DNA of 41,062 nt from a virus (lineage: Duplodnaviria > Heunggongvirae > Uroviricota > Caudoviricetes): IMG/VR virus record IMGVR_UViG_2939177367_000003, positions 1 through 41,062 of that record, one strand, 5' to 3'. Shown here piece after piece: positions 1-41,062 of the stretch. The notes under the pieces were generated by a model. That model ran no database searches and was not told the origin of the DNA. It worked only from the letters and a program-made list of their open reading frames with translations. The position numbers and the translations under genes were made by a program. Each line of letters begins with the position of its first letter. Within the stretch, counting starts at the first letter, position 1.

Positions 1-1158
1 ATGCTCACCGTTAAGCAGATTGAAGCAGCAAAGCCGAAAGAAAAACCATACCGCCTTCTCGATGGTAATGGCCTGTACCTTTATGTCCCTGTGTCAGGGA
101 AAAAGGTATGGCAGCTTCGCTACAAGATTGACGGTAAGGAGAAAATCCTGACCGTCGGAAAATATCCGCTTATGACTTTGCAGGAGGCAAGGGATAAAGC
201 ATGGACCGCGAGGAAAGACATCTCGGTTGGCATCGATCCGGTAAAAGCGAAAAAGGCTTCGTCTAACAACAATTCCTTTAGCGCCATTTACAAGGAATGG
301 TACGAGCACAAGAAGCAAGTCTGGTCAGTAGGCTATGCAAATGAACTTGCAAAAATGTTTGATGACGACATTTTACCCATCATCGGCGGCCTTGAAATTC
401 AGGATATTGAGCCGATGCAACTTCTTGAAGTAATCCGCAGATTTGAAGATCGCGGTGCAATGGAGCGAGCCAACAAAGCCCGCAGAAGATGCGGCGAGGT
501 TTTCCGTTACGCTATTGTCACTGGTAGGGCTAAATATAACCCGGCACCTGACCTTGCTGACGCCATGAAGGGATACCGCAAGAAAAACTTCCCGTTTCTT
601 CCTGCAGACCAGATCCCGGCATTTAACAAAGCACTGGCAACATTTTCAGGAAGCATCGTATCGCTCATTGCGACCAAAGTTTTACGCTACACAGCCCTCA
701 GAACAAAAGAGCTTCGTTCCATGCTATGGAAGAACGTCGATTTTGAAAACAGGATTATCACCATCGACGCCAATGTGATGAAGGGACGCAAAATTCATGT
801 GGTTCCTATGTCAGACCAGGTAGTTGAACTTCTCACTACGCTAAGCTCAATCACCAAACCAGTATCAGAGTTTGTTTTTGCCGGGCGCAACGATAAGAAG
901 AAGCCAATTTGCGAGAACGCTGTACTGCTTGTGATCAAACAAATCGGCTATGAAGGTCTGGAAAGCGGTCACGGATTCAGGCATGAATTCAGCACGATTA
1001 TGAACGAGCACGAATGGCCTGCTGATGCTATTGAAGTGCAACTGGCACATGCCAACGGCGGATCTGTGCGCGGGATTTACAACCATGCTCAGTATCTCGA
1101 TAAGCGCAGAGAAATGATGCAGTGGTGGGCGGACTGGCTTGATGGGAAGGTGGGCTAA
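1..1158 (+). CDS. intS: P4-type tyrosine integrase (IntS-like), 385 aa
   Basis: N-terminal AKPKEKPYRLLDGNGLYL and C-terminal HANGGSVRGIYNHAQYLDKRREMMQWWADWLDG motifs typical of P4-family integrases; recalled as matching E. coli IntS. ORF starts at window base 1, so attL lies outside the window. Confidence 0.85.
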   Translation: MLTVKQIEAAKPKEKPYRLLDGNGLYLYVPVSGKKVWQLRYKIDGKEKILTVGKYPLMTLQEARDKAWTARKDISVGIDPVKAKKASSNNNSFSAIYKEWYEHKKQVWSVGYANELAKMFDDDILPIIGGLEIQDIEPMQLLEVIRRFEDRGAMERANKARRRCGEVFRYAIVTGRAKYNPAPDLADAMKGYRKKNFPFLPADQIPAFNKALATFSGSIVSLIATKVLRYTALRTKELRSMLWKNVDFENRIITIDANVMKGRKIHVVPMSDQVVELLTTLSSITKPVSEFVFAGRNDKKKPICENAVLLVIKQIGYEGLESGHGFRHEFSTIMNEHEWPADAIEVQLAHANGGSVRGIYNHAQYLDKRREMMQWWADWLDGKVG

Positions 1159-39037: not shown

Positions 39038-39540
39038 AACAAATGTCACTAATTGAGATGGATGGATTTCTGAAAGGTAAATGCATCCCACGAGATTTAA
39101 AGGTTAACGAAACAAACGCTGAATATCTGGTGCGTAAATTTGCTGAGTTTGAATCAAAACTGGAAACGGCGTTGCGGGAGTGTCGTTCCGCTGGAATCAC
39201 GATTGATAACCTTGAAGCCAAGTGTGCGGCGCTGGCAGCAGAGAATGCGGGGATGAAGAAGTTCTGCAAAGACGCTGCATTCGATGCCGATTACGAAGCA
39301 GAGCTAGGTATGGAGCGTGGTGGATTCAGTGATGCGCTTAACGAAATCAAAACCCCAGCCACCGATGCTTTCCTGGCTGAAGTACGGGCGCGGGGGGTAG
39401 AGATGTACGCAGATAACCTCGACAACGGAGCAGACGACGCAGAACGAGGTGGTTTTGATTATGCCGTTAAGTTTCTACGCAGTGAAGCGTCTAGTGTACG
39501 TTTGTTCGCCGACCTACTTCGCAAAGTAGGCAAGCAGTGA
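39034..39540 (+). CDS. Hypothetical acidic protein (~168 aa)
   Basis: ORF with GGAG RBS; coiled-coil-like central region; no recognisable catalytic motif. Confidence 0.3.
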
Positions 39541-39737
39541 ACAAGATTGACTATCAGGCACTGCGTGAGATAGCAAAGCACCAGAGACTTACAGAAGAAT
39601 CAGCGAGCTACGCAAGGACTAACGCCTCACACTCGATGAGGCATTTTCATTTATCAAGATATCTAGACCTACCATCGCCGCATCAATGCGGTTTTTTATT
39701 GCCTGATTTGCAGGTTCGATTCCCTATTCGGAGATAG
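39537..39737 (+). CDS. Hypothetical small protein (66 aa, GTG start)
   Basis: GTGA-coupled to upstream ORF; its 3' end overlaps the tRNA-derived fragment at 39706-39723. Confidence 0.2.
   Translation: MNKIDYQALREIAKHQRLTEESASYARTNASHSMRHFHLSRYLDLPSPHQCGFLLPDLQVRFPIRR
39706..39723 (+). repeat. tRNA-derived fragment (T-arm-like ATTTGCAGGTTCGATTCC)
   Basis: GCAGG-TTCGATT-CC has the form of a tRNA T-stem/T-loop; it is the 5' neighbour expected for the attR core at 40017-40031. Confidence 0.4.
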
Positions 39738-39742
39738 CACTC

Positions 39743-39943
39743 ATGCAACACGAACTACAACCTGATTCACTGGTTGATTTGAAATTCATCATGGCCGATA
39801 CTGGCTTCGGTAAAACCTTCATTTATGACCGGATTAAGTCCGGCGACCTGCCTAAAGCCAAAGTTATCCACGGGCGAGCAAGATGGTTATATCGTGACCA
39901 TTGTGAATTCAAAAATAAGCTCTTAAGCCGCGCCAATGGGTAA
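39743..39943 (+). CDS. torI: TorI-type excisionase / recombination directionality factor
   Basis: 66-aa translation MQHELQPDSLVDLKFIMADTGFGKTFIYDRIKSGDLPKAKVIHGRARWLYRDHCEFKNKLLSRANG matches E. coli TorI as recalled. Confidence 0.85.
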   Translation: MQHELQPDSLVDLKFIMADTGFGKTFIYDRIKSGDLPKAKVIHGRARWLYRDHCEFKNKLLSRANG

Positions 39944-40016
39944 AATAGCGGGTAAAATATTTCTCACATCTAAAAAACACCATTCCAATCAATCCCCTGC
40001 CGCTTCAAGTAGATGT

Positions 40017-40031
40017 CTGCAGGGGACACCA
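40017..40031 (+). repeat. attR core: 3' end of a tRNA-Arg-like gene (CTGCAGGGGACACCA)
   Basis: Reads as T-stem 3' strand, acceptor 3' strand, discriminator and CCA; lies between torI and dsdC; embedded in dyad CCCCTGC...GCAGGGG. Confidence 0.6.
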
Positions 40032-40126
40032 TCCTTGTGTTTATCCCTAAAACCACATAAAAACCGTAAATTAAATTCGAACTAGCAGGCCGAATAAGGC
40101 ACACCAGGAACTCGTGGTTTTATTCA

Positions 40127-41062
40127 TTATGAAGTGGTTTTTACCTGTTCTCTTAGCCAGGTAATAAACGCTTCAATTTTTGGCCACTGCCTGCCCGGTA
40201 ATGTGGTGATGTAATAATGCTGATGGCATTTCACCGTCATATCGCCAAACGGCGCGACGAGCTCACCACTGGCAAGCCTTTTTTGTACCAGGCGTTTTCT
40301 TCCCATCGCCACCCCAATATGATTCATCGCGGCAATAACAGCTAAATCAGAACGATCAAAGCCAATTCCAGAAGATGTCGGCAAATTAACCGCATAATGT
40401 TGCGCCCAACTATGCCATTCATCCGTACCGGAGTCGTTGCTCCATGCCTGTCTGTCATGGAGCAACGTACAGTGACACAGGTTAATTACCGTGTTGGTTA
40501 AAGCATGTCTTTGAGCGTATTCCGGGCTACATACTGGCAGGATTTCTTCATCCATCAGAAAGTGATGAGTGAGTTGCGCTGACGGCGCATCATCAAAGTA
40601 GATCGCCAAATCGATTCCGGCACGTTGCAGATTGACGTTGTCATTACCAGTGAGCACGGTGAGCGAAATAGACGGATACCGGCGTGTAAAGTCACCTAAT
40701 GCGGGCACCAACCAGCATTGGGCGATAGAGGGCCGGGAATACAGAGTTAACGTTCCCGATAACTCCTGATTTTTGATATCAAGAATTTCCTGGTTCAGGG
40801 TATCCAGCGACGATTTTAGCGCCCAATAAACACGTTTCCCCTCGTGCGTTAATTCCACTTTGCGATGGGAACGAACAAACAACTGAATGCCCAATTCTTC
40901 TTCCAGCTGATTGATACGGTGACTTACCGCACTGGGGCTCAGCGACAATTCCTCTGCCGCCAGGGCGAAGGACTGATGCCTGGCAGCCACTTCAAAAGTA
41001 TGCATTTTTGATAATTGCCAGCCGTTAAGCAGCCGATTTCTTATTTCACGAAGGGGTTCCAT
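40127..41062 (-). CDS. dsdC: LysR-family transcriptional regulator DsdC (D-serine deaminase activator); chromosomal flank
   Basis: Full 311-aa translation MEPLREIRNRLLNGWQLSKMHTFEVAARHQSFALAAEELSLSPSAVSHRINQLEEELGIQLF... recognised as DsdC; start codon is the last three bases of the window. Confidence 0.85.
   Translation of the reverse strand: MEPLREIRNRLLNGWQLSKMHTFEVAARHQSFALAAEELSLSPSAVSHRINQLEEELGIQLFVRSHRKVELTHEGKRVYWALKSSLDTLNQEILDIKNQELSGTLTLYSRPSIAQCWLVPALGDFTRRYPSISLTVLTGNDNVNLQRAGIDLAIYFDDAPSAQLTHHFLMDEEILPVCSPEYAQRHALTNTVINLCHCTLLHDRQAWSNDSGTDEWHSWAQHYAVNLPTSSGIGFDRSDLAVIAAMNHIGVAMGRKRLVQKRLASGELVAPFGDMTVKCHQHYYITTLPGRQWPKIEAFITWLREQVKTTS

Follow-up and report, generated by a model that had tools for sequence, protein, structure and literature searches.

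The DNA analyzed here, hereafter the window, is the whole of a 41,062-nucleotide stretch (positions 1 to 41,062 of IMG/VR virus record IMGVR_UViG_2939177367_000003; Caudoviricetes). Near its right end, the excisionase gene torI is flanked by two short pieces that match the 3' half of the host tRNA gene argW. The reading we favor, with a probability of about 0.55, is that these pieces differ in nature: the downstream one is the core of attR, the right attachment site of the prophage, while the upstream one is a phage-borne box in the torI leader that is tied to the integration target and either descends from the T-loop of the targeted tRNA or imitates it. Specifically, the box looks like a selected cis element. 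A first-pass annotation of the same DNA had instead regarded both pieces as parts of one tRNA duplication.

The tRNA homology of both pieces is real. As a reference, we used argW from the unoccupied argW-dsdC site of Escherichia coli BLR(DE3) (L004 541-615; L numbers denote the loci compared), which reads GTCCTCTTAGTTAAATGGATATAACGAGCCCCTCCTAAGGGCTAATTGCAGGTTCGATTCCTGCAGGGGACACCA. The upstream piece, TTGCAGGTTCGATTCC, matched argW 46-61 exactly, covering the variable loop, the 5' T-stem, the T-loop, and CC. Similarly, the downstream piece, CTGCAGGGGACACCAT, matched argW 61-75 and the next host base exactly. Thus, the first-pass annotation was right that 39706-39723 resembles a tRNA T-stem/T-loop (17 of 18 positions match argW, exactly so over 39708-39723), and that 40017-40031 resembles a tRNA 3' end (the exact match, to argW 61-76, covers 40017-40032). 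Both pieces are on the plus strand and overlap by 1 nt in tRNA coordinates. Joined, they literally give argW 46-76, as had been proposed. These were the only argW matches of at least 14 nt in the 41-kb window, and each pattern occurred once, even when up to 2 mismatches were allowed. A chance match was rejected: in 198 of 200 Markov shuffles of the window, the longest argW match was 9-13 nt, and in the other 2 it reached 15 nt. ARAGORN detected 0 tRNA genes in the window, and a search of 39500-40130 against Rfam (E ≤ 10) yielded no tRNA match.

For a KplE1/HK620/Sf6-type prophage inserted in argW, at the argW-dsdC locus, the downstream piece is simply the attR core. This assignment is based on homology boundaries, identity to the published core, and the structure of a related lysogen. 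Specifically, homology to free phages (Sf6, HK620, IME10, and others) stopped at 40032 and homology to the empty site began at 40017. The two homologies overlap by 16 nt, CTGCAGGGGACACCAT, a sequence that has been published as the duplicated core of KplE1 (PMC2951348) and is annotated as the attP core in the HK620 and Sf6 records. In the related lysogen, whose attR region is 98% identical to that of the window, the other end of the prophage comprises an intact argW, the same core, a P' arm with TorI sites, and intS. In the window, torI likewise lies beside attR and intS at the opposite prophage end (position 1). A TAAA motif is common to arm-type sites (PMC2951348), and the P arm of the window contains two repeats with this motif, GGGTAAAAT, which have the character of arm-type sites as judged from their sequence. 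Arm-type sites differed between phages (GGGTAAAA versus GGGCATAA). Overall, every defining feature of the IntS/TorI module at argW for which we tested was present.

The core also contains one arm of a dyad. The 7-bp version described in the first-pass annotation, CCCCTGC at 39994-40000 and GCAGGGG at 40019-40025 with 18 nt between them, is present, and is part of TCCCCTGC/GCAGGGGA (39993-40000 and 40019-40026; 18-nt spacer), the right arm of which is within the att core. The dyad was maintained across genera with compensatory changes: CCCCTAC/GTAGGGG in Rouxiella (L020, L289) and TCCCTGC/GCAGGGA in Edwardsiella-type phages. In 28 sequences, 94.6% of cells paired and two pairs had changed on both sides; the set had been pre-filtered for partial complementarity, which biases it towards pairing. 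All nine of the listed one-sided changes gave G-U (eight affected the seven inner pairs), a pattern consistent with pairing in RNA of the torI sense. The z-scores of the fold were approximately -2.4 for both RNA and DNA.

The upstream box belongs to the phage genome. From approximately 39677-39688 through 40032, the window matches the Sf6 and HK620 virion genomes at 97-99% identity and KplE1 of E. coli K-12 at 95%, and the 16-mer TTGCAGGTTCGATTCC is unchanged in all three. Because the same 16-mer occurs in the free phages and in K-12, the box was not created by integration in this chromosome. It is located outside the 135-bp attR fragment, which is sufficient for excision in vitro (PMC3509656). 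Nor does it have the properties of an integration scar, which would be restricted to chromosomes and extend to the tRNA 3' end. The virion records of Sf6 and HK620 contain the box without change, and it stops after the T-loop with CC, or with CCTG in two lineages, lacking the acceptor 3' strand and CCA.

Relatives of TorI/Xis were gathered from one-genome-per-species contigs, IMG/VR contigs, and GenBank phages. The leaders upstream of xis carried a motif, C(A)(G)GTTCGATTCC(C), followed by 4-7 variable nt in most lineages (12 in Serratia) and then by (C)GGAGAT(A/G). The motif was found in phages of E. coli, Erwinia phages Midgardsormr38 and phiEt88, prophages of Serratia, Citrobacter, Pantoea, and Edwardsiella, Salmonella phage g341c, and many uncultivated contigs. 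Indeed, GTTCGATTCC was invariant in 13 of 13 representative leader lineages (E. coli, Erwinia, Serratia, Citrobacter, Pantoea, Edwardsiella, and Salmonella). In these same lineages, Xis was 36-88% identical to TorI, third-codon identity was 0.51-0.70, and the bases on both the 5' and 3' sides of the box differed. One lineage reads GATTTCC, which was taken as a C-to-T change. At closer range, 1 of 16 columns of the box was variable in 52 E. coli-type haplotypes, compared to 13 of 25 upstream of it, 3 of 6 in the spacer between the box and GGAG, and 17 of 66 torI third positions; changes in the box of E. coli phages were singletons only. Finally, the box was the same whether the P'-arm repeats were of the GTTCG, CATTACC, GATGTAAC, or CAGAAC type.

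Some further features of the box were recorded in the same comparison. In Erwinia phage Midgardsormr38 (L007 1485-1514), it occurs twice in tandem with a period of 16, as CAGGTTCGATTCCC GT CAGGTTCGATTCCC; a close relative (L326) has one copy. The possibility that the box tracks the host T-stem (ACAGG versus GCAGG) was rejected, as ACAGG boxes were found with cores implying GCAGG and the position is also polymorphic in E. coli-type phages. A second copy of the box that might mark a cassette boundary was found neither in the window nor in the loci of the Sf6, HK620, Erwinia, Klebsiella, and Salmonella phages. The tRNA identity of the box and its constancy across genera were not described in the papers searched, a search that did not extend to Panis 2007 JBC, Panis 2010 Virology, and Menouni 2013 PNAS. 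The core, torI, and the arm sites were already known; the identity and constancy of the box are apparently a small unreported feature.

The first-pass annotation had proposed that the argW 3' half was split by an insert of approximately 290 bp containing torI, or that the arrangement was left by tandem or nested integration or is what remains of a satellite. Such models do account for the abutment of the pieces in tRNA coordinates (argW 46-61 and 61-76), and tandem occupancy followed by deletion does happen at this locus (see below). Nevertheless, we give them almost no weight. To evaluate the split-tRNA model, the 14 nt to the left of TGCAGGG in the phage arm of attP were compared with the tRNA in 41 distinct sequences from many genera. 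Identity to the tRNA at the TTCGAT positions was 80, 80, 37, 95, 83, and 85%, while the 5' T-stem positions were at chance level. The consensus directly left of the core was TTCGATGT(A/C) followed by TGCAGGG. For example, TGCAGGGG is preceded by GAGTTCGATGTA in Serratia and by AATTCGATGTA in Citrobacter and Pantoea, and the E. coli phages are more eroded, with AGTAGATGTC. Based on this comparison, we read the att-derived block as a contiguous T-loop and 3' end, and the upstream box as a second, separate copy of the T-loop. The split model fails because the core already has a degenerate T-loop of its own. In addition, the box reads on as CCTG in two lineages (L015 and L018), which means that the two copies overlap and are not complementary halves. 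Thus, the abutment of the pieces does not reflect a single copy split by torI. Moreover, the segment of approximately 290 bp contains the arm-type repeats and overlaps the functional 135-bp attR, and hence is not an insert. As a separate observation, the phage arm beside the presumed overlap TGCAGGG always read GT(A/C/T) where the tRNA has TCC, although TTCGAT further to the left was retained.

The nested-integration and satellite versions are contradicted by the presence of the same arrangement in the free phages Sf6 and HK620 and in K-12. Of the options that had been listed, an unusually structured attP came closest, inasmuch as the box belongs to the phage genome. It had also been considered that K-12 might carry this segment as ordinary sequence devoid of tRNA homology; the segment is present in K-12, but so is the homology.

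A genuine remnant of tandem integration was found at argW in E. coli 2015C-4498 (L006), where TTCGATTCCTGCAGGGGA is fused to GATAGCACTCATG ahead of torI. The upstream part is the right (attR) end of a different argW island, which contains a SIR2 gene and a serine recombinase, and in strain 600468 ends in TTTATTTT, TCGATTCCTGCAGGGGACACCA, and GATACCC, in that order. The fusion to the torI leader occurred at the microhomology GGA and was present in 2 of 41 genomes with the SIR2-island end. Its junction, TTCGATTCCTGCAGGGGA followed by GATAGC, differs from that of the window, which argues against the first-pass models. This is a real torI-only remnant. Such remnants, with the rest of the KplE1-type prophage deleted, occur in E. 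coli 2015C-4498 and 2013C-3342 (L006 1486-1513; L111 2636-2660). The L006 variant was also considered as the ancestral state, which was rejected because it is the attR end of the L111 island joined to the leader by deletion at GGA. Thus, the process envisaged in the first-pass annotation does occur at argW, but the window does not resemble its product.

If the box is target-tied, as we favor, it would descend from, or mimic, the part of the argW T-loop that borders the crossover region of attB and attL on its left. The feature common to all box-bearing phages is their host target, the T-loop/acceptor region of tRNA-Arg(CCU). Because this target is shared while phage-specific sites drift, the box would be pinned by something tied to the target. 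The mechanism that we prefer is a DNA operator ahead of torI, bound by a recombination protein that also recognizes the T-loop side of attB and attL. The integrase, through its core-binding domain, would be the first candidate for this protein and TorI the second. Bound protein would then exert feedback control over torI, the step deciding excision. We regard this binder and operator step as possible but tentative. A more specific version, with the odds well against it, is that the box is a regulatory attB mimic: a free-standing copy of a tRNA half-site, situated after the terminators and ahead of the torI ribosome-binding site, whose occupancy by integrase or TorI gates excisionase expression. 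In such a mimic, the specificity of the protein would be pinned by the invariant host tRNA gene, so that the operator would stay frozen across genera and phage-specific sites would drift. The operator proposal fits the published view that expression of the recombination directionality factor (RDF) is the main control of excision, the integrase being constantly made at a low level (PMC2951348). In the KplE1/HK620 family, a fixed 10-nt box immediately ahead of torI and identical to the T-loop of the target tRNA is a concrete candidate site for the control of torI itself.

The TorI sites I1-I5 of attL, the attachment site covered by the footprints in the papers searched, contain the pentamers GTTCG, GATCG, or GTCCG (PMC2951348). 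The box contains GTTCG at 39714-39718, and is alike at 9-10 of 11 positions to site I4, as GGTTCG(C/A)TTC. As a putative core-type site of the integrase, the box is identical to the 13-16 nt left of TGCAGGG in argW. A related pattern was seen in attL itself. Site I4 resembles the tRNA T-loop, GGTTCGATTCC, both as GGTTCGCTTCA in the K-12-type arms and as the variant GGTTCGATTCA in the lysogen NZ_CP066366.1 (L341, minus strand 160-175). Also in attL, the GTTCG of the T-loop is 31 nt, or approximately three helical turns, from the GTTCG of site I1. By this spacing and likeness, TorI might also contact the tRNA side of attL.

Several observations weigh against the favored reading or parts of it. 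The base after the pentamer was C or T in 43 of 43 sampled TorI-type sites and is A in the box, although one natural I4 variant also has A. With respect to TorI in particular, the box did not follow RDF specificity: it was unchanged in phiEt88, L253/L255, and L280/L284, which have non-GTTCG P'-arm repeats that were assigned as excisionase sites by position only. An ordinary TorI site was judged improbable on these grounds, given the A and the constancy of the box where the P'-arm repeats had switched to CATTACC, GATGTAAC, or CAGAAC. With respect to the integrase, the C side of attP beside the crossover is constantly GT(A/C), whereas the tRNA and the box have TCC; because these bases differ, the box and the C site are not equivalent, if the integrase reads them. 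The leaders are also mosaic, such that some of what looks like deep conservation may stem from recent exchange and not from prolonged purifying selection. A minority of relatives lack the box (for example, Klebsiella phage Chronis, Erwinia phage 49, and Dryocola), and in approximately half of the box-less leaders sampled, xis closely follows the upstream gene. The box is dispensable for recombination, because box-less relatives with a readable attP integrate in the same tRNA. Finally, no related system with a different tRNA target was found in which tracking of the target by the box could be tested. IntS relatives of at least 60% identity all use argW; the next, at no more than 38% (Pseudomonas VW-6S and Yersinia YeP6), are organized differently. 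Where an attP could be recognized in more remote Xis relatives, the tRNA used was again the same.

The phased repeats of the P' arm by the integrase promoter, which are excisionase sites by position, differed between lineages (L233 2330-2420, L253/L255, and L280/L284), reading GTTCG(C/T), C(G/A)TTACC, CGATGTAAC/GCGTTAC, and CAGAAC/CGAAC. This variation suggests that RDF specificity has switched several times in a single family of modules.

Mosaicism is also what would be expected if the box were a functionless fossil, the relic of an old tRNA/att junction persisting in a boundary sequence exchanged between phages. The Sf6 record marks L001 1524-1764 as boundary sequence bsq2, many different upstream sequences join right at the 5' edge of CAGG/GTTCG, and clade-2 Xis genes (e.g., L134, 36% identical to TorI) have leaders nearly identical to those of clade 1. 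The dispensability of the box and its absence from some relatives are also consistent with a relic. However, a neutral relic should decay like its neighbors. Instead, the 10-mer is intact in 13 lineages while its flanks, including the 5-7 nt after it, vary freely. The T-loop copy on the attP side, which is a relic, did decay, and the box changes within E. coli phages are only singletons. We therefore consider a fossil doubtful. Less likely again is an element acting at the RNA level in the torI leader, such as an anti-Shine-Dalgarno sequence (UUCC/UUCGA with GGAG), a T-arm mimic for tRNA enzymes, or part of a Rho-loading site. On the sense strand, the box always lies 4-14 nt 5' of GGAG. In the minimum-energy fold, UUCGA is paired with UCGGA and the ribosome-binding site is covered, and the Edwardsiella and Pantoea versions form a T-arm-like hairpin, GACAGG..CCTGTC. 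The box also matches what we take to be a TruB-type motif, GUUCNANNC, and Rho reportedly controls RDF transcripts in KplE1, as Menouni 2013 is said to have described. Nevertheless, the fold was no better than those of shuffles (z = -1.76) and there was no conserved stem: the 5' T-stem bases vary (CAG, CAA, TCA, CCT) and the 3' partner is mostly missing. A conserved RNA hairpin is not supported on this basis. Because the sequence is invariant, there is also no covariation to support a structure, and Rho-loading sites are not conserved at the level of single bases.

The HK620 GenBank record suggests yet another function, placing a "promoter, phage integration" and a "cII protein" binding site on TTGCCTGATTTGC and the next 26 nt. 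In addition, the second TTGC is as far from a weak TATTCG as it is in lambda pRE. Several findings render such a cII-activated integration promoter (pI) very unlikely. The spacing is TTGC-N5-TTGC rather than the N6 of lambda, a large share of natural copies, that of K-12 among them, have TTAC in place of the first TTGC, and the repeats are absent from Edwardsiella, Pantoea, Erwinia, and Salmonella leaders that keep the box. Thus, the conserved TTGC-N6-TTGC of a lambda-type cII promoter was not found. A promoter scan gave no sigma-70-like promoter near the box, and by-eye checks there for sigma-54, sigma-E, and sigma-32 promoters revealed nothing convincing. Moreover, a promoter at this position would co-express the excisionase during integration. 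Finally, a leader peptide running through the box was dropped as an explanation, as reading frames and starts differ between lineages.

Features of the prophage ends, in window coordinates
Feature	Position	Strand	Basis or remark
intS, integrase gene	1-1158	+	Starts at the window ATG; end at 1158 inferred from the 1158-nt Sf6 gene
attL and argW	just left of the window		Outside the window
Terminator-like hairpin 1 and T-run	39624-39651	+	Terminator scan; upstream of the box
Terminator-like hairpin 2 and T-run	39677-39701	+	Terminator scan; Sf6/HK620 homology begins here (39677-39688)
TTGC-N5-TTGC	39699-39711	+	HK620 record: cII binding site of a putative integration promoter
Upstream T-loop box, TTGCAGGTTCGATTCC (argW 46-61)	39708-39723	+	Invariant core GTTCGATTCC at 39714-39723
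torI ribosome-binding site, GGAG	39730-39733	+	Within the conserved (C)GGAGAT(A/G) block
torI, excisionase (RDF)	39743-39943	+	Protein 100% identical to HK620 HkaC and Sf6 gp18
135-bp attR fragment	39920-40054	.	Primers attR-IHF2 and attR-XbaI (PMC3509656) mapped onto the window sequence
Two GGGTAAAAT repeats, putative IntS arm-type sites	39938-39958	+	By similarity; the HK620 "attP" repeat annotation covers the same place
Dyad left arm, TCCCCTGC	39993-40000	+
Degenerate T-loop copy directly left of the core	40008-40016	+	AGTAGATGT here; TTCGATGT in most relatives
attR core, CTGCAGGGGACACCAT (argW 61-75 plus T)	40017-40032	+	Includes the dyad right arm (40019-40026)
dsdC, host gene flanking attR	40127-41062	-

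The window extends from the ATG of intS at position 1 to the ATG of dsdC at 41062 on the minus strand, and thus contains the whole prophage minus its left junction. Using blastn, window 1-1151 was 97% identical to the Sf6 int gene (L001 2017-3167). The order at the right end is two terminator-like hairpins, the upstream tRNA-like piece, GGAG, torI, a 73-nt spacer, the downstream tRNA-like piece, host DNA, and dsdC. Two open reading frames (ORFs) touch the tRNA-like pieces. The first, of 66 codons (39537-39737), starts at a GTGA overlap with the preceding gene, crosses both terminator hairpins and the box, and has its TAG stop inside GGAGATAG. Its 3' part is probably not coding, because the box is intergenic in Sf6 and K-12. 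The second, at 39936-40085, overlaps the att core and is the homolog of HK620 hkaB and Sf6 gene 17; in the prophage, the 3' end of this ORF is swapped for host sequence after 40032, yielding a hybrid ORF.

The att region of the window does not differ from that of KplE1 (CPS-53), HK620, and Sf6. All share the 16-nt core CTGCAGGGGACACCAT, torI by attR, intS at the other end, and the argW-dsdC locus. TorI is 100% identical, in keeping with the published identity of TorI, HkaC, and P18 (PMC3509656), and identity from the box through the core is 95-99%. The prophage in the window is full length, at approximately 41 kb, compared to the 10-kb remnant of KplE1 in K-12. The HK620 "pI" and Sf6 "bsq2" annotations cover the same nucleotides as the upstream piece. 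However, they derive from sequence inspection, the features of the cII site are not conserved, and the conserved GTTCGATTCC is not what the annotation emphasizes. With the TorI sites I1-I5 of attL, the box shares GTTCG and the likeness to I4, but those sites form a phased array, whereas the box is a single site with A after the pentamer and is unchanged with other types of P'-arm repeats. Finally, the tRNA 3'-fragment repeats of tandem islands, such as the one ending in TTCGATTCCTGCAGGGGACACCA (L111), are likewise partial tRNA 3' segments beside mobile-element DNA. These run from the crossover point to the tRNA 3' end and occur only in chromosomes, whereas the box, which is carried in virion genomes, ends at the T-loop without the 3' end. 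As a practical lesson for annotation, nested integration need not be behind a second tRNA-like fragment close to an att site.

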